64,000 nt of DNA from Candidatus Aenigmatarchaeota archaeon (GCA_016187415.1 JACPJT010000001.1:13634-77633); one strand, 5' to 3'; shown: positions 19,961 through 64,000, counted from the stretch's first letter. Program-made: numbers and translations. Notes: generated from the sequence alone by a model not told the origin.

Positions 19961-20314
19961 TTATTCTTTCTTTTCTTTAATCATCTTGGCAGTCGCCTCT
20001 TTTGCTTCGGCCTTGGTTTTCTCTCCCTTCAACTCGCCAGCTGAAGGCAGTTTCAAATTAAATTTGTGTATAACGCCGGCCTTCTTGTAAGCTTCTAGAA
20101 CATCTTCATCAGTCGCATCTTCTTTAAGCTCGACCTTAATTGAGCTGGGCTCCAAATGTGCTATGTTGCATTTTCTTCGCTTGATGCCAGTCAAAAGCTT
20201 AGGTCCGGTAATAGTAACAAAATTGCCGTTTGCGGGTTTTACAACGCAGCATATCCCGCCCGCTTCCCTGCCCACAATTTTCATGCATACAGTTCCAACA
20301 TCAACGCTTGCCAT
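19961..20314 (-). CDS. rpl14e: 50S ribosomal protein L14e
   Basis: VGTVCMKIVGREAG, TGIKRRKCNIAHLEP. Confidence 0.93.
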   Translation of the reverse strand: MASVDVGTVCMKIVGREAGGICCVVKPANGNFVTITGPKLLTGIKRRKCNIAHLEPSSIKVELKEDATDEDVLEAYKKAGVIHKFNLKLPSAGELKGEKTKAEAKEATAKMIKEKKE

Positions 20315-32022: not shown

Positions 32023-32113
32023 GCTCAGGTGGCAGAACGGCTATGCAGACTAGATTATCTAGGCAGAAGCGCCTGCAGAGCGTCGCAAGCGAGTTCGACT
32101 CTCGCCCTGAGCT
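32023..32113 (+). tRNA. tRNA-Cys(GCA) with 20-nt intron at position 27/28 (32049..32068)
   Basis: GCTCAGG/CCTGAGC acceptor; removing the intron gives GGCGC-CTGCAGA-GCGTC; BHB-like AGA/AAG bulges; immediately upstream of cysS. Confidence 0.88.
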
Positions 32114-32147
32114 CAATAATTTAATTTAAAACCGTCAATTACTCATA

Positions 32148-53911: not shown

Positions 53912-53999
53912 GGGCGCGTAGCTTAGCCTGGTGGAGCAATCAAATTGGCTCATTCGACTGATACTCGATAGGCCGAGAGTTCAAATCTCTCCGTGCCCA
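53912..53999 (+). tRNA. tRNA-Ile(GAT) with 14-nt intron at 27/28 (53940..53953)
   Basis: GAGC/GCTC helix with AAT and ATT bulges; spliced arm ATCGA-CTGATAC-TCGAT. Confidence 0.9.
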
Positions 54000-54042
54000 C
54001 TATTTATTTAAATCGGACGCACAAATACAATTTAGTGGATAT

Positions 54043-55869: not shown

Positions 55870-55996
55870 GCTCCCTTCGTCTAGCCCGGTCAACCCGTGC
55901 CGAAAGGACTACAGACTTTCGATTGACTTCGAAAGATTTGACATCTGAGATGAAAGAAGAACTCTGTGGACTGGGGTTCAAATCCCCAAGGGAGCA
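55870..55996 (+). tRNA. tRNA-Glu(TTC) with two introns (D-loop 55893..55904; 37/38 55922..55961)
   Basis: GCTCCCT/AGGGAGC acceptor; CGGT/GCCG helix with CAA/AAA bulges; CTTT/GAAG helix at the anticodon; spliced arm ACAGA-CTTTCGC-TCTGT. Confidence 0.85.
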
Positions 55997-56006
55997 TACG
56001 ACCTTT

Positions 56007-56050
56007 GGGATATATATAGAGCCCGAGAAAGTTCCGCTCCCAGAAAGTTC
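56007..56050 (+). repeat. putative left terminal inverted repeat of the casposon, with two internal CCC(G)AGAAAGTTC repeats
   Basis: GGGATATATATAGAGCCCGAGAAAGTTCCGCTCCCAGAAAGTTC resembles the GGGGATATATAT-type end I recall for the Aciduliprofundum casposon; partner end not in window. Confidence 0.65.
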
Positions 56051-56063
56051 ATAAAAAATCCAT

Positions 56064-57170
56064 CTAGAGTACATTGGGGAAACGTGATTTTAGATAGTTT
56101 TTGACTGTCCATAAAAATGGTATTAAGAAAATAAAATCAAAAAGGGTAAAAGTTAATGGTCTTGAAGGCGGTAAAAGAGAAACTGTAAATTCTGCAATAA
56201 CGGTTGGTGTTAAAGCTATTATATACATGTCGTAAAGAGTTTTCCGAAAACCATATTCACGATAGTGTTCAAGAGAACCATATTTTCCGATTACACCCAG
56301 TATTAGAATAATTGCTAAGAAGAAAAGAAACTCTGAAGGGAATAGCGTTCGGTGAAAGTTTATTTTCACACTTTCAGTTAAATTGCCCCCCGCATCAAAT
56401 TTGCAGTTTTTAATTGGTACTACAATACCATTAGGCAGTGTTTGGTATAGAGAAAAGGAAATTCCATAAAACTCATTATTTCGAAGACCAACGTCGGCAG
56501 TTATCAATTGATGGTCAAATTGAATTGGTGTAGGTTTTGCAGTAAAGACAAATCCCTTGTAATGTGAATAACCAGATGGGGTTTGACATAGAATTTCACC
56601 ACTTGGAGTCTTTGCTATAGCTTCAACATTTTGTTTTATATCAGTTTCGGGAAAGATATAATGCCCGATTATTATGATGTTATTTGTTATGCTTTTTGAT
56701 TCATCGAATGGGTAATAAGCGTCGAATGGATAAAGATATTTAGAACGTAGTTCTCCAACATTCTGTACAGAAAACTTTACAGTGACATTTGAATCATTTT
56801 CAGATAACTTTATTTCATGTGAGAATATATACAACTGTTTATCGTTTTTCTTTAAATCAGAGACGTCAGGTCTTTCCTCAAGATATGTTTGATTACCATT
56901 TTCGATAATTTTAAGTTGCCAAACACGAAAAATAGTTTCACTTGTGTAATTAATTCTGATTGTTGCATTTTTACCTGTAATTTGCAATTCTTTTGAACTA
57001 GAGTCAAAATTCACATTTGTGTTTTCTAATATCCTAACAACATTGTCTGAGTTGTCTAAATGTTCATATGTTACATCAAATTTATTTCGATTAAATTGAA
57101 CTAAATTTAATAATGCGTATAGTAAAATTACCAAACCAATTGCTATAAGAATTATTTTATTCCATTTCAT
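56064..57170 (-). CDS. membrane protein with large extracellular beta-rich domain (casposon cargo)
   Basis: N-terminal TM, several N-x-S/T sequons, three C-terminal TMs. Confidence 0.7.
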   Translation of the reverse strand: MKWNKIILIAIGLVILLYALLNLVQFNRNKFDVTYEHLDNSDNVVRILENTNVNFDSSSKELQITGKNATIRINYTSETIFRVWQLKIIENGNQTYLEERPDVSDLKKNDKQLYIFSHEIKLSENDSNVTVKFSVQNVGELRSKYLYPFDAYYPFDESKSITNNIIIIGHYIFPETDIKQNVEAIAKTPSGEILCQTPSGYSHYKGFVFTAKPTPIQFDHQLITADVGLRNNEFYGISFSLYQTLPNGIVVPIKNCKFDAGGNLTESVKINFHRTLFPSEFLFFLAIILILGVIGKYGSLEHYREYGFRKTLYDMYIIALTPTVIAEFTVSLLPPSRPLTFTLFDFIFLIPFLWTVKNYLKSRFPNVL

Positions 57171-57239
57171 AATGAAACAGTTAGTGAACTATTTATTTAT
57201 CCTCCACCATATTTCTATCATTCTTGAGGTGATAGAAAC

Positions 57240-58386
57240 GTGGTAGATATGGACTTAAATAATAATTTGAATATCTCAAATAAATTCCTCTTTCTTGACG
57301 GCTATGGGATAGATGTTAGAGTAGATGATGGTAAATTGGTCGTAAAAGACGGCAATGGTTCAAAGCAAACATTCTTTCCTAAGAGATTCCCTTTCAATAA
57401 CGTGATTGTTTATGGAACGAGAGGTTCGATAAGCTTCGAACGGCAAACTCTTGACCAGTATACTTCCACAAGAAGCCAAGCAAACTGAGTTGAAATTCAG
57501 ACAATATGAAACATATAAGTCCGAAAGGCGAGTCGAGATAGCTAGAAAGTTCATTGAAGCAAAGATTCAGAGGACGAAAGATGTTCTTGATTGGTTGAAT
57601 CAAAGATATCCAGAGATTGACACTAATTTCAAATCCGACCTATCAAAAGCACAAACTATCCCAGAAATAATGAATGTTGAGGGTAGAGTTGCTGAATTCT
57701 ATTGGAGACAATTGCATAAACTTCTGAGTAAAAAGTTTGAATTCGAGAATAGAAAGATTGGTAAGACTGAAAGACCTATGGGTGCTGTAGACCCGATAAA
57801 TTGTCTGCTTAATTATGGATACTCTTTGCTTGAGAGTGAATGCAGAAGAGCAATAAATTCTGTCGGACTGGATACACATGTTGGATTTCTACATGAGGTA
57901 AATTTAGGCAAAGAACCTTTGGTGTACGACTTACAAGAGCCTTTCAGATGGTTGATTGACTTGGCTGTAATCAACGCTTTAGAGAATAAGATTTTCGACA
58001 AGAAGGATTTCATAAGGACTGAGAATTTCAATCTCAAGCTGAAAAACAGTGGTGCTAAGAAGCTGGTTAAGGAAGTTGAAAACCAGTTGAACAAGACTGC
58101 CTTTTATCAAAGCATGGAATACAGATGGTTCAACATCATTTTATTCAAGGCAAGGGAATTAGGGCAACATCTGCTAGGCAAGAGGAAAATTATTGATTTT
58201 GGTGTGACAGTAGCAAATCTGGAAAGAATGGATAACCATGAATTAAGAGAGAAAATTCTGGAGTTATCGAATTCTAAGGCTAGAAAATTAGGAATATGTA
58301 AAAGTGAGTTGTGGTATTTGAAGCGAAAAGCAAACTCTGAGAAACCATTTAAGATTTATAATAGAATTAAAGAAAGGTTAATATGA
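57240..58386 (+). pseudogene. cas1: casposase Cas1-solo with C-terminal HTH; frameshifting deletion at ~57440
   Basis: LDGYGIDVRVD, GSISFE | NGKLLTSILP, NVEGRVAEFYW, NCLLNYGYSLLE, GFLHE, LVYDLQEPFRW, ARKLGICKSELWY. Confidence 0.9.
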
Positions 58387-58389
58387 TTA

Positions 58390-58833
58390 TTACTCTGGTT
58401 GTGTAAAGAAAGTATCATGAATTATTTTATCTAGTTCTTTTACAATTTCTACTCCATTTAAGCAAATTTGCTTTATTTCATCATCAGAAGGCTCTGCACT
58501 TTCGTAGATATTTATATGACCTAATTTATCATTTCTGTCAGAATTAAATCTGAGAATTTCTTCTTCAAAATCTTTTTTAATTATCCCTAATATGAATAAA
58601 TCTTTCGCAAGTGGAGCAAAATATTTTTTATTTACGATATTCCATTTTTCTGGGTGGTTTCCTAATGGCTGGTCGTTTTCGTCCTTATTGAATTTGTATC
58701 TCAAAATAATTTTCATTTGGTGATGAATTCCAGCGTGTATGGTGGCAAAAGCTTTCCATATATTTTGCTTCAACAAATTATCAAAATAATCTAGAGATAA
58801 TTTGTTTCCATTGTAAAGCAATCTATCTTCCAT
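58390..58833 (-). CDS. putative HEPN-like protein
   Basis: All-helical with FNSDRNDKLGH (RN-x4-H). Confidence 0.5.
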   Translation of the reverse strand: MEDRLLYNGNKLSLDYFDNLLKQNIWKAFATIHAGIHHQMKIILRYKFNKDENDQPLGNHPEKWNIVNKKYFAPLAKDLFILGIIKKDFEEEILRFNSDRNDKLGHINIYESAEPSDDEIKQICLNGVEIVKELDKIIHDTFFTQPE

Positions 58834-58870
58834 TATTTTAATTAGTCTAGGTATTTAAAAATTAGAATGT

Positions 58871-59074
58871 TCATTTCTTCTTCCAAAAGAAACCAGCCTT
58901 AGTTTCTATCCTTTCTACCTTACCTTCGTTCTTCAATTCCATAAGAACCCTGTATAGCATGTGCCAATTAATGCTTTTGCCACTCTTTTCTTCGACCTCT
59001 TTCAGGACTTGGTTCGTACTCTTTATATTATTCAAAGAAAGTATACCCAAAACCGTTTCTCTATACTTACTCAT
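58871..59074 (-). CDS. small winged-helix protein
   Basis: STNQV...NWHMLYRVLMELKNEGKVERI. Confidence 0.7.
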   Translation of the reverse strand: MSKYRETVLGILSLNNIKSTNQVLKEVEEKSGKSINWHMLYRVLMELKNEGKVERIETKAGFFWKKK

Positions 59075-59160
59075 AAGAGAGTTTTACAAAATATTGTTAC
59101 TAAGCATATATCCAAAGGTTTGATACAAGAGTTTTAAAGGTAAAATGTAATAGTAAATTA

Positions 59161-59790
59161 ATGAAAAGCAAGCCTAAGAGCATATTGAAATGGTTTGGCA
59201 TAATAGTTGGAATTTTCTTTCTTGCTATGATAATATGGGGTATTCTGGGTTACTTGTCATATTCCTACATTTTAACAAACTCTACAACATCAGCCTCTCC
59301 AGATGTACAAAAATTCAACGAACTTAGCAGTAGAAGTCGGAAGGAAGTAAATCAATTTTCCAATGAAATAAAAGACTATTCAGTTAGCCTAAAAGCTGGA
59401 GATACCATTGCATCTAGAAGTAAGGTCACCAACGCTAGAAACATATTGATTGATTTGAAGAATGATTACCAATTCGTATGCGATTTCCAAGAGAGTAACA
59501 AGCAATTATTTAGCAGTGACATAGAGATACTAATTCAAAAGTGCAAAGGCTTTTTGGATGTTTTCAACTTATGCTATCCAAAATACTTGGATTCGTTGTA
59601 TAGTCTAACTTACTTAGTAGAACAAGGAAACCAAGCAAAAACTCAGCAAGGTACACAGAATTACCAAACGTCATGTGCTTCTTGGCTAAACGACTGGAAT
59701 ATTGTAAGGGGTAGCTGTAGTACATTGTCGGAAAAGTATTATTTGGGTCTAGAATTTGCAGATTTGTCCGAAATGTGCAAATTAAACTAG
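59161..59790 (+). CDS. membrane-anchored exported helical protein with several Cys
   Basis: N-terminal TM; Cys-containing ectodomain. Confidence 0.7.
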   Translation: MKSKPKSILKWFGIIVGIFFLAMIIWGILGYLSYSYILTNSTTSASPDVQKFNELSSRSRKEVNQFSNEIKDYSVSLKAGDTIASRSKVTNARNILIDLKNDYQFVCDFQESNKQLFSSDIEILIQKCKGFLDVFNLCYPKYLDSLYSLTYLVEQGNQAKTQQGTQNYQTSCASWLNDWNIVRGSCSTLSEKYYLGLEFADLSEMCKLN

Positions 59791-59836
59791 GATTCTTCTT
59801 CAATAGCTCACACTTTAATGTAAACTCTAGGATATG

Positions 59837-60107
59837 CATGGCTTGTCTAGTAAAATGTCCGATATGTCAGAAAACTAAGAAGCTTGATAGCAGAACCAAG
59901 CATTACTTTAGATGTGATTGGTGTCATATAGCTATCGAAGTAAAGCCTAACATATTGGGAGAATCGTTTGTATTGCCTAGAAAATGCAAGGATTGTGGTA
60001 GAATTAAGGGTAAAGATTGTGATTGTATTGAAATTGTAGACGGTGAACCAGAAAAATTGATATTAGTCAATGATGAGTCAGAAAAGTTAATCATTGTTGA
60101 CAATTAA
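59837..60107 (+). CDS. Zn-finger protein
   Basis: CPIC, CDWC, CKDC..CDC. Confidence 0.55.
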
Positions 60108-60620
60108 AATGGATTATATAGTTCTCCTATCTTCTTTTCTAGGAAGTAAACCGATGTCCTTCTCTTACTTCCATCATATAACTCATCGAAGCTATCAATA
60201 AACAATTTAGAAGCTTGTTTTTTACTAAGATTTTTAATTCTAACGCTTAGTGACTTGCATCTTTCAATAAAGGATTTCTCTAGAGGTTTAGGTATTTCAG
60301 CATCTTTTATTTTCGATATATTATTTTTTGTCAATTCTGCAAAAAACTTCTTTTCTAATTCCGAACCTTTTATAACAATTTCTGCAACCTTATTTTTATT
60401 TGTGAAGAATAACTTTTTTACATGGGGCTTTACACCGCTACTTTCATGCATCATCAAACCTTCAGTTTCAATAATATTTAGATAAGTTGTAATATTTTTC
60501 GCATAACCAGCATCAATTTCACCTTTTAATAATCTGGTAATCTCTTGAGGGTGTATTGCTTTATCCCAACATAAATAAATCAACATGAGATACAGATTTC
60601 TGATTTTGAAATTACCCATA
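60104..60620 (-). CDS. putative winged-helix protein
   Basis: IHPQEITRLL...NITTYLNIIETEGLM; divergent from the replication cluster. Confidence 0.55.
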
Positions 60621-60697
60621 TTGATAAGTAGATGTGTAAATATAAAACTCGATTTACAGCACAAACAATAATTTAATTCGAAATTACTAAATTAAAC

Positions 60698-60991
60698 ATG
60701 AGAAAACGAGAAGCTGATTTCGTCAAATCAGCCCCCAGAGTTAAATTAGTTTATATGGCTATTGAAAAAGAGCCAGAATTTGATTTCTTAAATGAAGTAT
60801 TTGATAGAATGATATTAGATAGAGAGATTTCTTCTTACCGTAAATCAATAATACCATTTCCACTAATCTTCAAAAGGCTTGGAGTAGTCTACCATTTTTC
60901 TAAAAAGACAAGTTTGAAGTTCTTGAAAGTTTTAGAAAAACGGGGTTACATCAAACTAGTCAACTTTCATGGAATTAAGGTGACTAGATAA
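60698..60991 (+). CDS. winged-helix protein
   Basis: FSKKTSLKFLKVLEKRGYIKLV. Confidence 0.65.
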   Translation: MRKREADFVKSAPRVKLVYMAIEKEPEFDFLNEVFDRMILDREISSYRKSIIPFPLIFKRLGVVYHFSKKTSLKFLKVLEKRGYIKLVNFHGIKVTR

Positions 60992-61491
60992 TGAAAGTTC
61001 TTAGTATAGCTAAAACAGCTTGGAGTAAGCTGAATCCAGAGAAGCGATTTACAAGGATGTTATCACTAGATGCCCTAAATCTGATGCGACATAATAAGCT
61101 TTCATTAGAGAAAGCGTCTAAGTATGTGGGATTGGACAAAGAAACTGTACAACAACATATAGCTTCTGCAATTTACAAAAGGCACAATAGGTGGATACCT
61201 AAAAGAATGGACATTATACAACGAAGAATGACTGTCTACAAAAACGGAAAATCAACATCAATTGTTGTAAGAGATTCCAAACAAGCCTCTAGGATAGGAG
61301 AATATTTCAATGATGTGAAGAAGGCTTTAACAACTGGTGATGACTCATTCCTCAGAAAATACAATAGAAGAAAAATAATCGGTGTAAGAGGAGGAAAGCA
61401 TAAGCTTGAGACACGACTTGAGAAAATCAGAGAAATAGAAGAGGCTAAAGAAGACGGTGAGTTTCAAGTTCTCTACGACACGGTGAGATGA
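60991..61491 (+). CDS. HTH-domain casposon protein
   Basis: LSLEKASKYVGLDKETVQQH; ASRIGEYFNDVKKAL; coupled to HNH and polB. Confidence 0.7.
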   Translation: MKVLSIAKTAWSKLNPEKRFTRMLSLDALNLMRHNKLSLEKASKYVGLDKETVQQHIASAIYKRHNRWIPKRMDIIQRRMTVYKNGKSTSIVVRDSKQASRIGEYFNDVKKALTTGDDSFLRKYNRRKIIGVRGGKHKLETRLEKIREIEEAKEDGEFQVLYDTVR

Positions 61492-61842
61492 ATGAATAGA
61501 GAACATTATGAAAGAGAGATAATCAATAAAATAAAGCAGAGAAAGTTCAAGGAAGCTTTGAGAGACACTGCAAAAGCAAACATATGCATACTCAAGTGTG
61601 AATGCTCTTCTATAGAAGAGCATCATTTACTCAGCAGAATAAATTCAGATGATACAGTTGGATTGTGCAAACCACCACATAGTTTTGTAACCAATGCACA
61701 AAATGAACTACCATCTCAGATAAGAAAAAACAAGTCGTCTAAAAAGAGAGGTCTCCATTTCTTCCTTGTAAGCATTGGTGCATTGCTGATTCTGATTGGC
61801 GAAAGAATGATAGATTTTGGATTGAGTGACTTGGATGATTGA
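61492..61842 (+). CDS. HNH-like endonuclease
   Basis: C.KC...IEEHHL......TVGLCKPPH. Confidence 0.65.
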   Translation: MNREHYEREIINKIKQRKFKEALRDTAKANICILKCECSSIEEHHLLSRINSDDTVGLCKPPHSFVTNAQNELPSQIRKNKSSKKRGLHFFLVSIGALLILIGERMIDFGLSDLDD

Positions 61843-64000
61843 AAAGAAGGAAATTGCGTTAAGAACGTATGTGAAACCAAAAAGAATAAAAGAAAGAATT
61901 CAAAATAAAGAAGTTAACACATCTAGAATTCTAGTTTTTGATACAGAGACTACGGATGACATGTATCAAAATCTGAAGTTTGGTTCATTTGCCATAATCG
62001 AAAACTCCAATGAGCAATACAAGGGAATATTTTATAACCCAGAAGATGTCACAGAAGACGAAAAGAAATTATTAGAAAAACACTGTAAATTAAAACAAAT
62101 TCAGTTGTATACAAAGGAAGATTTTATAGAAAATGTCTTCATAAAGGAAGTTTTTTATACGCAAACTTTATGTATTGGTTTCAACTTACCATTTGATATA
62201 CCAAGATTGTCTATTGACTGGTCTGAAGCTAGGGGGAAGAGATTTGAAAATGGGTTTTCCTTTATTTTAAGCAAAAATCCTAGCATTCCTAGATTGAAAA
62301 TAAAACATATTGACAGCACAATGTCATTCATCGAATTCGGCTCTGCTTTTGACTACAATGGGAGAAATTACAATTTCAGAGGCAATTTCCTAGATTTGAA
62401 AACCTTGATGTTCGCACTAACTAATGAAAAGTATTCACTAAAAACAGCTTGTAAATTGTTCAAAACTAAGCACCAAAAATCAGAAGCAAAAACTCATGGT
62501 AAAATAACTCCTGAATATATTGAATACAATTTGAACGACTTGGAATGCACCAAAGAGCTTTATTACAAGGCAAAAGAAGAGTACGATAAATTTTGTATCA
62601 ACCTGCCAGTTACAAAGGCGTATTCTCCAGCATCTATTGGAAAGACATGTCTCGACATGTTGGACATCAAATCATTCGAGAAAAAGAATCCAAACTTTCC
62701 AGATGCAATAAAAGGAAACATCATGGCTTCTTACTATGGTGGTAGAAGCGATGTAATGTTTAGACGAAACCCCATGCAAATTGTTCTTTTAGATTTCACG
62801 AGCATGTACCCTACCGTATGCATATTGCAAAATCTTTGGAAATTCATAATAGCTGAGAAGATAGAGACAATAGATAATACAGAAAATGTGAGGAAGCTAT
62901 TGGAGAGAATTAAAGAACCAGCAGATTTGCTAGACAATGAACTCTGGAAGACTTTCAATTGCATAGTTTTTGTCAAGTCGAATGAAGATTTACTACCAGT
63001 TAGGTCAAGATTTAACTATAATGAAGAGGCTTACAACATAGGAATAGAGTATCTGACAAATGAAAATGCCATACCATATGCCCTTTCAGATGTTATAGCA
63101 TCCAAGATACTAAATAATAAAACACCTGAGATAATGAAGGCTATTAGATTTATCCCAGTTGGCATACAGAATGGCTTGAAGAAGGTAAATATTCTGGGCG
63201 TAGAATCAGACCCTGAAAAACAAGATTTCTTTGAGGCACTCATAGAAGAAAGGCAGAAGATTAAAAACGAGATGAAAAGGTTGGGTGAAGCCTCGCCCGA
63301 ACACATGCTTTTAGACAGCAAACAAAAGGCACTGAAGACGATTGCCAATGCGATAAGTTATGGCATTTACATAGAAGACAATCCAGAAGAAAACTATGAA
63401 ATAATTGATGCATATGGAATTGAAAAGTTTGAAGCCGATGCTAGCAAGATTGACAACTTTGGGTATTTTTTCAATCCTATAATGGCTGTTTTGATAACAT
63501 CTGCATCAAGATTGCTATTGGCTATAGCTGAGAGTATCCTAGCTAAGCATGGAAAATTCTTCGCATTTTGCGACACCGACAGCATGGCTGTACCACCAGA
63601 GTGTGCAAAAGAGTTGCAAGACTATTTCCAAAAACTAAATCCTTACAAAATTGATGTGGAAATTCTAAAGCAAGAAACTCCAGTTGTTTGGTGTTATTGC
63701 ATAAGTGCAAAGAGATATGTTTTGTATAAAAAGGATGACAAAATAGAGATTTTCAAGAAAGATAAAAAATACAGATTTTCATTGCACGGGTTGGGTCACA
63801 TAGAGAACCCCTTTGGAAATGACAGAGGCGATGATATACCATGGCAAATAGAATGGTGGACAGATATACTGAATTTGGAATATGGGATTGTAGATGAGAA
63901 TGAGATAACAACCAAATATAGAAACAAATACGAGATTGCACAGCTTAGTATAACATCAACAAATATAATGAAAAGATTTGAGGTCTTAAATAAAGACAAG
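61835..64000 (+). CDS. polB: family B DNA polymerase (partial, runs off window; absent from ORF track)
   Basis: ExoI FDTET, ExoII GFNLPFD, ExoIII YNLND, YYGGR, DFTSMYP, KTIANAISYG, CDTDS, SAKRY; frame confirmed at ATG 61835, YYGGR and DTDS. Confidence 0.93.
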   Translation, partial: MIEKKEIALRTYVKPKRIKERIQNKEVNTSRILVFDTETTDDMYQNLKFGSFAIIENSNEQYKGIFYNPEDVTEDEKKLLEKHCKLKQIQLYTKEDFIENVFIKEVFYTQTLCIGFNLPFDIPRLSIDWSEARGKRFENGFSFILSKNPSIPRLKIKHIDSTMSFIEFGSAFDYNGRNYNFRGNFLDLKTLMFALTNEKYSLKTACKLFKTKHQKSEAKTHGKITPEYIEYNLNDLECTKELYYKAKEEYDKFCINLPVTKAYSPASIGKTCLDMLDIKSFEKKNPNFPDAIKGNIMASYYGGRSDVMFRRNPMQIVLLDFTSMYPTVCILQNLWKFIIAEKIETIDNTENVRKLLERIKEPADLLDNELWKTFNCIVFVKSNEDLLPVRSRFNYNEEAYNIGIEYLTNENAIPYALSDVIASKILNNKTPEIMKAIRFIPVGIQNGLKKVNILGVESDPEKQDFFEALIEERQKIKNEMKRLGEASPEHMLLDSKQKALKTIANAISYGIYIEDNPEENYEIIDAYGIEKFEADASKIDNFGYFFNPIMAVLITSASRLLLAIAESILAKHGKFFAFCDTDSMAVPPECAKELQDYFQKLNPYKIDVEILKQETPVVWCYCISAKRYVLYKKDDKIEIFKKDKKYRFSLHGLGHIENPFGNDRGDDIPWQIEWWTDILNLEYGIVDENEITTKYRNKYEIAQLSITSTNIMKRFEVLNKDK

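Follow-up and report, generated by a model that had tools for sequence, protein, structure and literature searches.

The stretch of DNA considered here, 64,000 nucleotides (nt) from a Candidatus Aenigmatarchaeota archaeon, raises the question of whether a cas1 gene that follows a tRNA-Glu gene near its end belongs to a casposon, and whether that casposon is complete. Casposons are transposons equipped with a DNA polymerase of their own and inserted by a Cas1-type enzyme. The whole stretch, referred to below as the window, corresponds to G000:C4:13634-77633 of the host assembly, in which contig C4 extends 20 kb further past the window end. An original prediction, made from the window alone, had proposed such an element in a probable DPANN archaeon, with its right end in the DNA downstream. 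We conclude with high confidence that the locus is a complete family-2-type casposon at the 3' end of a tRNA-Glu(UUC) gene in an Aenigmatarchaeota host. Positions beyond the window are given in locus L001 (G000:C4:69001-88000), where the L001 coordinate plus 55367 equals the extrapolated window coordinate.

Ends of the element and its target gene

The element measures 9,412 bp, from window position 56007 to 1,418 nt beyond the window end (L001 640-10051), and is delimited by terminal inverted repeats (TIRs) and a target site duplication (TSD), listed here with the target gene:

55870..55996, plus strand: tRNA-Glu(UUC) gene, the integration target, called by ARAGORN after removal of both inserts
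55993..56006, no strand: left TSD copy, its first 4 nt being tRNA positions 70-73; 14 of 14 letters identical to the right copy
56007..56065, plus strand: left TIR (GGGATATATATAGAGCC...), one arm of an inverted-repeat pair, 51 nt without mismatch and about 59 nt overall
L001 9993-10051, beyond the window, no strand: right TIR (...CTATATATATCCC), inverted-repeat partner of the left TIR
L001 10052-10065, beyond the window, no strand: right TSD copy AGCATACGACCTTT, the same 14 letters as before the left terminus

The left terminus GGGATATATATAG begins at 56007, 10 nt past the end of the tRNA gene at 55996, as the original prediction had described. The exact reverse complement of the 13-mer terminus occurs at one site in the 735-kb genome, C4:79039, where AGCATACGACCTTT follows it, and the 13-mer has a single occurrence per orientation across the whole genome. 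Of the 80 inverted pairs that the repeat finder lists for the region, the TIRs are the longest (60 nt at 95%), and in a direct comparison their arms agree without mismatch over 51 nt and can be followed to about 59 nt. The TSD covers the last 4 nt of tRNA-Glu and is 14 bp long, or 15 counting the boundary G. The right terminal repeat and the duplication are both present: the anticipated inverted terminus lies 1.4 kb past the window, and 14 of the 15 letters of the anticipated 15-nt duplication are found, the leading G being the letter that is not duplicated. Independent contigs bridge the left junction (X1, X2 and X3) and the right junction (X3 and X4). They come from four groundwater metagenome runs of one study that contain the stretch, two of which are possibly the source of the assembly. 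Because both junctions are bridged in this way, the insertion is not a binning or assembly chimera.

The raw sequence at 55870-55996 is called as a tRNA by neither ARAGORN nor Rfam. It holds two inserts, one of 12 nt in the D arm (55894-55905) and a 40-nt intron in the anticodon loop at position 37/38 (55922-55961). When both are cut out by coordinates with a script, ARAGORN reports a canonical 75-nt tRNA-Glu(ttc); with the D-arm insert alone removed, its intron mode reports tRNA-Glu(ttc) with a 40-nt intron, and with the 40-nt intron alone removed it calls nothing. No tRNA-Glu is among the 36 ARAGORN calls of the whole genome.

We further note that the left flank is matched in nine of ten same-genus genomes, and that the 3' end of tRNA-Glu is located in seven loci, at least five of which hold the gene that adjoins an M24 peptidase gene. 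Same-genus genomes carry a tRNA-Glu gene after the M24 peptidase gene without a casposon.

Casposase and family B polymerase

Two large genes carry the assignment of the element:

57240..58386, plus strand: casposase, a Cas1 with a C-terminal helix-turn-helix (HTH), PF01867 at E 5.9e-53, split in the assembly
61826..64000 and on to L001 9081 (= G000:C4:78081), plus strand: family B polymerase (PolB) with a CDTDS motif C, PF00136 at E 4.9e-10

The assembly presents cas1 as two open reading frames (ORFs), 57240-57488 and 57451-58386, with a 53-nt gap at about 57438-57441. A database protein of 396 amino acids (aa), P0001, agrees with the C-terminal ORF at 100% identity and carries 17 additional residues precisely where the break falls, and P0132 (399 aa) corresponds to P0001 read from the upstream start codon. 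Residues 5-394 of the 396 of P0001 align with residues 12-410 of the Methanosarcina mazei casposase 6OPM, HTH included, at E 6.3e-118 and 397.6 bits, against 115.5 bits for the best CRISPR Cas1. Identity to named methanogen proteins is 47-48%. This full-length match bears out the predicted Cas1 with C-terminal HTH, and the repair of Cas1 that had been proposed ahead of in vitro integration is unnecessary, as an intact natural variant exists.

Relatives were collected by a scan of one genome per species, which gave 171 casposase relatives, and 76 loci were kept. A Cas1 tree of 66 rows combines 63 of these 76 loci with P0001 and the two further Cas1 proteins of the host genome; three loci with internal stops and ten with partial matches were omitted. 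In this tree the casposase-type rows are separate from the host's CRISPR Cas1 and from a second protein, Cas1-solo (97 in the SH-like approximate likelihood ratio test, SH-aLRT), so that the Cas1 of the element groups with casposases and not with CRISPR Cas1. P0001 pairs with the protein of locus L054 (SH-aLRT 99) beside Aenigmatarchaeota rows. Both fall within a 48-row group (SH-aLRT 91) together with Methanosarcinales that include the published family 2 host Methanosarcina sp. 2.H.T.1A.6, P0001 lying outside a 42-row crown clade (100) of methanogens, Nanoarchaeota and Woesearchaeota.

The predicted family B polymerase, which had been proposed from outside the ORF track, is likewise present from 61826 (PF00136). 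Its motif C reads FCDTDS, and CDTDS is found in 75 of 121 relatives. Among 8,000 candidates scored, 821 PolB relatives reach E <= 1e-5, and named ones are from Methanolobus psychrophilus R15 (E 1.2e-205) and an Aenigmarchaeota metagenome-assembled genome (MAG). A 'PolB_CDTDS' group has been defined by the casposon PolB of Aciduliprofundum boonei, as described in the available part of PMC7544198, and the PolB here has, by sequence, the family 2 feature of a non-family-1 ('RNA-primed', CDTDS) type.

The assembled polB encodes 837 aa and lacks 76 nt at L001 8946, with a frameshift and a stop at L001 8972. P0253 (896 aa) agrees fully with the assembled PolB through residue 826 and extends beyond it; the 44 residues at its C-terminus are encoded in another frame directly downstream of L001 8946. 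Measured against independent contigs and proteins of the same study, the assembly is therefore short by 53 nt in cas1 and by 76 nt in polB, both of them frame-shifting, and the intact P0001/P0132 and P0253 derive from other assemblies. The alignments of the listed contigs break off at L001 2071 or contain 76 additional letters at L001 8946; none of the listed pieces crosses either gap colinearly, and contig records of 1,259 and 3,974 letters have the same size as the source records of P0132 and P0253. We conclude that the prevalent form in the samples has an intact cas1 and an intact polB. Either an artefact of assembly or a minor variant accounts for the missing 53 nt and 76 nt, and the element probably still functions in the population. 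The two 'pseudogenes' of the public MAG are thus probably assembly-specific gaps, which matters for anyone expressing these proteins.

Placement among known casposons

Three further ORFs bear on the family of the element:

60104..60664, minus strand: orf186, a 186-aa ORF that may be a short counterpart of the second HTH protein of family 2 (weak match only)
60991..61491, plus strand: orf166, a 166-aa conserved casposon HTH protein, with relatives in 43 of 76 loci
61492..61842, plus strand: orf116, a 116-aa HNH-like protein, with relatives next to polB in 33 of 76 loci

With the TIRs, the TSD, the casposase with HTH and the CDTDS PolB, the HNH-like and HTH genes give the element the family-2-type character that had been proposed for it. 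These modules recur in the 76 related loci (polB in 50, orf166 in 43, orf116 in 33), and orf166 relatives always adjoin the HNH-like gene and polB. The structural model of orf166, with a predicted local distance difference test (pLDDT) score of 89.9, has winged-helix domains as its top Foldseek rows, at a best E of only 0.11. The orf116 family shares the pattern C..C...E.HH...S...C..CH..T..QN, in which CKPPH replaces C..CH in the protein here. Pfam HNH (PF01844) is found in four of 13 orf116 relatives at E 0.0017-0.045, all of them under the curated cut-off, and a 13-sequence profile matches the HNH enzyme McrA (6ghc) at E 0.011. For the orf116 model (pLDDT 78.7), neither Foldseek at E <= 0.001 (pdb) nor VIA at Z >= 5 (pdb_via_wide) gives a match, and HNH entries appear in these searches only at E 2-3 or Z 4.4, amid unrelated helical proteins. 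Of the predicted HNH gene, then, a conserved HNH-like ORF beside polB stands, and its identity as an HNH protein is tentative. The two predicted HTH genes fared similarly, orf166 being one and the other being without clear counterpart: orf186 matches a 284-aa gene upstream of cas1 in locus L011 weakly (34% over 50 aa, E 0.005 in a 13-sequence search), and a profile of the roughly 300-aa HTH gene from 13 loci found nothing meaningful among the ORFs of the element.

Published accounts, in the portions available, give family 2 a Cas1 integrase with C-terminal HTH (PMC9939771) and describe it from Euryarchaeota and one Thaumarchaeota case, at tRNA-Pro, tRNA-Leu or intergenic sites (PMC9939771, PMC4779613). 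Family 1 is described there with a casposase without HTH, a protein-primed PolB and the 3' end of the aEF-2 gene as target (PMC4779613, PMC8464041), and membership in it is ruled out here by the casposase HTH and the tRNA target.

The family 2 casposons of M. mazei (tRNA-Leu, for example MetMaz1FA1A3-C2; 6OPM) share with the element the casposase with HTH, PolB, HNH-like and HTH genes, and, according to the part of PMC6977970 available, a 14-bp TSD that overlaps the last 4 bp of tRNA-Leu and an element end ...TATATCCC. The TIRs here also fall within the 31-59 bp range given in the accessible text of PMC4779613. The differences are the Aenigmatarchaeota host, the tRNA-Glu(UUC) target, a TSD that begins AGCA where that of M. 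mazei begins CGCA, and a cas1 that lacks the preceding HTH/HEAT gene of about 300 aa and runs in the same direction as polB. AciBoo-C1 of A. boonei (family 2, tRNA-Pro) is alike in its intron-containing tRNA 3' end, TSD overlap and T-loop determinant, the T-loop segment upstream of the TSD being required there (PMC5137440, in part), and in a PolB of the CDTDS group (PMC7544198); compared by description, it differs in a 15-bp TSD, a 5-bp overlap and another tRNA, against 14 bp and 4 bp here. The intron-containing target that had been put forward as new is not so, because the A. boonei tRNA-Pro target contains an intron (PMC5137440) and intron-containing tRNAs are reported as targets of thaumarchaeal casposons in the literature available.

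Family 4 (MetMaz1FA1A3-C1-like) is described in the available part of PMC4779613 as having no HTH/HEAT core gene, a Zn-finger protein and a rearranged core order. The element resembles it in the missing clear HTH/HEAT gene, a Cys-rich ORF and an unusual order; it differs, again by description, in TIRs of 51-59 nt and a tRNA target, whereas family 4 has 225-bp TIRs and an intergenic site (PMC4779613). A further comparison is offered by the casposon at L011, from an Aenigmatarchaeota MAG whose host is of the same class and for which no publication was found. It is alike in size (9.9 kb), in its 58-nt TIRs, 15-bp TSD and GGGATATAGATA terminus, and in sequence, its PolB being 48% and its casposase 54% identical and a homologue of orf209 (listed below) being shared, and it differs in its tRNA-Pro(CGG) target, the usual divergent gene order and an HTH gene directly upstream of cas1.

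Host range and insertion rule

The host genome is 735 kb long and 93.9% complete. In prolyl-tRNA synthetase it shares 62% identity with the Aenigmatarchaeota MAG holding L011 and 39-49% with nine other genomes, and a phylum-wide search places the genomes of L009, L010 and L011, all Aenigmatarchaeota, in the same class. Judged from these sequence comparisons the host is a member of the Aenigmatarchaeota, a DPANN phylum, and shares its class with three Aenigmatarchaeota MAGs, in line with the DPANN host of the original prediction.

DPANN titles are found on 18 of the 76 related loci (Woesearchaeota nine, Aenigmatarchaeota three, Nanoarchaeota three, and one each for Forterrea, Iainarchaeum and Micrarchaeota, the last three of which we take to be DPANN). 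The remaining loci are mostly from Methanosarcinales, Methanomicrobiales, Thermoplasmatota, Bathyarchaeota and Nitrosopumilaceae. In the published literature available, apart from supplementary casposon lists, which were not covered, neither a DPANN casposon nor a tRNA-Glu target was found. The extension of host and target range that had been proposed accordingly holds for that literature and fails for the public databases: since DPANN casposases are already common in public MAGs, the extension concerns print and not databases, and such elements are not rare in public data. What the element adds is a well-bounded and apparently intact casposon from a DPANN phylum, together with a new tRNA target. 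Its use lies in cataloguing and in choosing enzymes to assay, and the general picture of casposons is unchanged.

TIRs with a TSD of 14-20 nt (at most one mismatch) are present in 25 of the 76 loci, and an ARAGORN tRNA adjoins 17 of these 25 (Leu 7, Pro 3, Ser 3, Gln 2, Arg 1, Ala 1 and Glu 0). With the ends registered on GGG...CCC, and with L083 omitted because its ends are of another kind, 20 of 25 elements, this one included, have their first TIR base 31 nt from T-loop G53, and four have it at 32 nt; the set comprises elements in loci L011-L081 and L001, one of the 25 being without an adjacent tRNA. The spacing of 31-32 nt spans at least six tRNA identities, including Leu, Pro, Gln, Ser, Arg and Glu. 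The element thereby contributes a simple rule that crosses phyla, a spacing of 31-32 nt between T-loop and element end that does not depend on which tRNA is used. This agrees with the T-loop requirement published for A. boonei and with the TSD overlap published for M. mazei.

By analogy with A. boonei and M. mazei, the casposase would bind the GGGATAT... ends and treat the part of the tRNA gene around the T arm as a 'leader'. Each 3'-OH end would then attack one strand, the two points of attack being 14 bp apart and the first of them at tRNA position 70, and gap filling would duplicate the 14 bp and leave the tRNA intact. The element may be copied by its own PolB.

The guanine-plus-cytosine (GC) content of the element is 33.2%, against 40.4% for the genome, and a casposase-type Cas1 (E <= 1e-60) is present in none of 10 same-genus genomes, two of 69 other same-family genomes and seven of 371 same-phylum genomes, its own included. 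The low GC content, this scarcity in relatives, the casposon-free tRNA-Glu genes of the genus and the perfect TSD together indicate that the acquisition is probably recent. The nearest relative, L054, comes from the same family as the host; its casposase is 63% identical and its left TIR 87.5% identical over 32 nt. No tRNA adjoins the L054 element, so the tRNA-Glu target is not shared with the nearest relative.

The 14 DPANN-titled rows of the Cas1 tree require at least four separate placements, and those of Nanoarchaeota and Woesearchaeota nest inside a clade of Methanosarcinales and Methanomicrobiales. One could speculate, though we consider it unlikely, that casposons pass back and forth between episymbiotic DPANN archaea and methanogens that may be their hosts, and that the tRNA-Glu genes of this genus serve as a repeated landing pad, as the two terminus-like motifs described in the last section would suggest. 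If so, the 31-nt T-loop rule would let one enzyme land at almost any tRNA.

Alternative explanations

Several observations weigh against a complete, mobile casposon of this type. No contig of the four runs joins L001 639 to 10052, as expected of an empty site in which the tRNA-Glu end is joined directly to GTGTTATAGG...; contigs cannot reveal rare forms, and this result is uninformative on excision. Nor does the downstream DNA of same-genus relatives align to the right flank (0 blastn matches). As no empty site was observed, we infer mobility and do not observe it. A joint at 525->606 was considered as an empty site and rejected, as it belongs to a different tRNA-Glu intron region from another organism. 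On the side of the genes, the copy in the assembly has frame-breaking gaps in both core genes and would be dead if these were partly real; orf116 has no Pfam match at E <= 1, which leaves the HNH assignment weak; the second core HTH protein of family 2, of about 300 aa and directly upstream of cas1 in 13 loci, has no clear counterpart; and cas1 is co-directional with polB, unlike most relatives, since of 50 loci with a polB match 47 have polB on the opposite strand, upstream of cas1, and two (L050 and L056) have it on the same strand, downstream. Finally, the Cas1 tree includes no labelled family 1, 3 or 4 references, and we therefore use the designation 'family-2-type', a name that makes no claim about how the element stands to family 4.

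Some of these points would suit a dead relic, a former casposon that is now immobile, with cas1 broken and polB truncated. The assembled cas1 lacks 53 nt (17 residues and a frameshift) and polB 76 nt, and the empty site is not found among the contigs of the four runs. The listed contigs of those runs break at both gap positions or hold extra letters, and the TIRs, perfect for 51 nt, and the equally perfect TSD speak against decay, which makes a relic unlikely. Cas1 and PolB could also be passengers of an integrated virus or plasmid, which would then be no transposon moved by Cas1; this thought is encouraged by the element's ORF content, since eight of its 13 ORFs have no known or curated family and two or three of them are membrane-like. 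Virus structural families are nonetheless absent, with no structural PHROGs among 15 proteins and PADLOC matching Cas1 only, so that viral structural genes do not follow polB. Neither a tyrosine nor a serine recombinase is present, the element is bounded by TIRs and a 14-bp TSD and not by att sites, and its end has the same position relative to the T-loop as in 23 related elements; we regard this explanation as very improbable. Least credible of all is a degenerate CRISPR adaptation locus, or an assembly chimera that places unrelated DNA beside the tRNA. The genome does hold a Cas4-Cas2-Cas1 module elsewhere, yet neither Cas2 nor Cas4 is among the 13 ORFs of the element and a k-mer scan finds no CRISPR array in the assembly, which speaks against a CRISPR-Cas adaptation module here; its Cas1 scores far higher to a casposase than to CRISPR Cas1, and independent contigs bridge both junctions. 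A complete family-2-type casposon thus remains the reading that we prefer.

Other genes of the element

The remaining ORFs of the element, several of them cargo, are the following:

56064..57170, minus strand: 368-aa ORF, hydrophobic by eye, cargo; no Pfam, PHROGs or PADLOC match and no relative in the 76 loci
58390..58833, minus strand: 147-aa ORF, cargo; no family match (Pfam, PHROGs, PADLOC)
58871..59074, minus strand: 67-aa probable winged-helix protein; sub-threshold Pfam MCM4_WHD and FUR, with a 72% identical ORF in Aenigmatarchaeota L010
59161..59790, plus strand: orf209, a 209-aa ORF with an N-terminal hydrophobic stretch, cargo; 48% identical ORF in the L011 casposon, no curated family
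59775..60107, plus strand: 110-aa Cys-rich ORF (CxxC pairs by eye); no family match
60698..60991, plus strand: 97-aa ORF; no family match
L001 9038-9751, beyond the window, minus strand: 237-aa hydrophobic ORF; no family match
L001 9756-9953, beyond the window, minus strand: 65-aa possible winged-helix ORF; weak MCM_C winged-helix match at E 0.026

Other Cas1 genes of the genome

The original prediction had reported no other cas genes or array in the window. The window indeed holds no second Cas1 and no array; the whole window was not scanned for other cas families. Outside it, the Cas4-Cas2-Cas1 adaptation module stands at the very start of contig C3 (G000:C3:171-2023, locus L007), and its array may be unassembled. 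The Cas1-solo (327 aa, Pfam Cas1 at 190 bits) is encoded upstream of the window at C4:3609-4592. Its neighbours (G000:C4:2289-4592, locus L006) are a 178-aa protein resembling DEDDh/PolB exonucleases, a 236-aa ORF and a nearby LAGLIDADG ORF. It adjoins neither Cas2 nor an array, and the tree groups it with CRISPR Cas1, apart from the casposases, on a branch of great length.

Terminus-like motifs and other tRNA genes

One further feature lies just outside the element:

L001 10066-10082, beyond the window, no strand: terminus-like 17-mer GTGTTATAGGTATCGCC, directly after the right TSD, 14 of 17 letters matching a casposon terminus

At 20,000 random genome positions, 14 or more matches occur 11 times. 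The remaining 19 kb downstream hold no inverted partner of GTGTTATAGGTATCGCC and no third TSD copy (at most three mismatches). The 17-mer suggests the remaining end of an older insertion at the same site. Terminus-like motifs after the same-genus tRNA-Glu genes were dismissed as not significant, the best matching 7-11 of 17 letters and 11 or more being reached in about 9% of random windows.

A second tRNA-Glu gene, tRNA-Glu(CUC), is read by eye at C2:7303-7389; it has a similar 12-nt D-arm insert and is missed by ARAGORN. Exactly 10 nt beyond its end stands a terminus-like motif, GGGATATGGG... / GGGATATGGGTGTAAC (G000:C2:7303-7415, locus L101). Around GGGATATGGGTGTAAC there is no inverted partner or duplicated flank, ordinary host genes lie downstream, and the motif may be an old scar or a chance match.

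Short introns are common among the tRNA genes of the host genome: in the ARAGORN list many have introns of 10-40 nt, several of them non-canonically placed. Such short introns probably also lie behind two odd ARAGORN results inside the window, a 'tRNA-Stop(tta)' (32023-32114) and a 'tRNA-???' (53912-54000).

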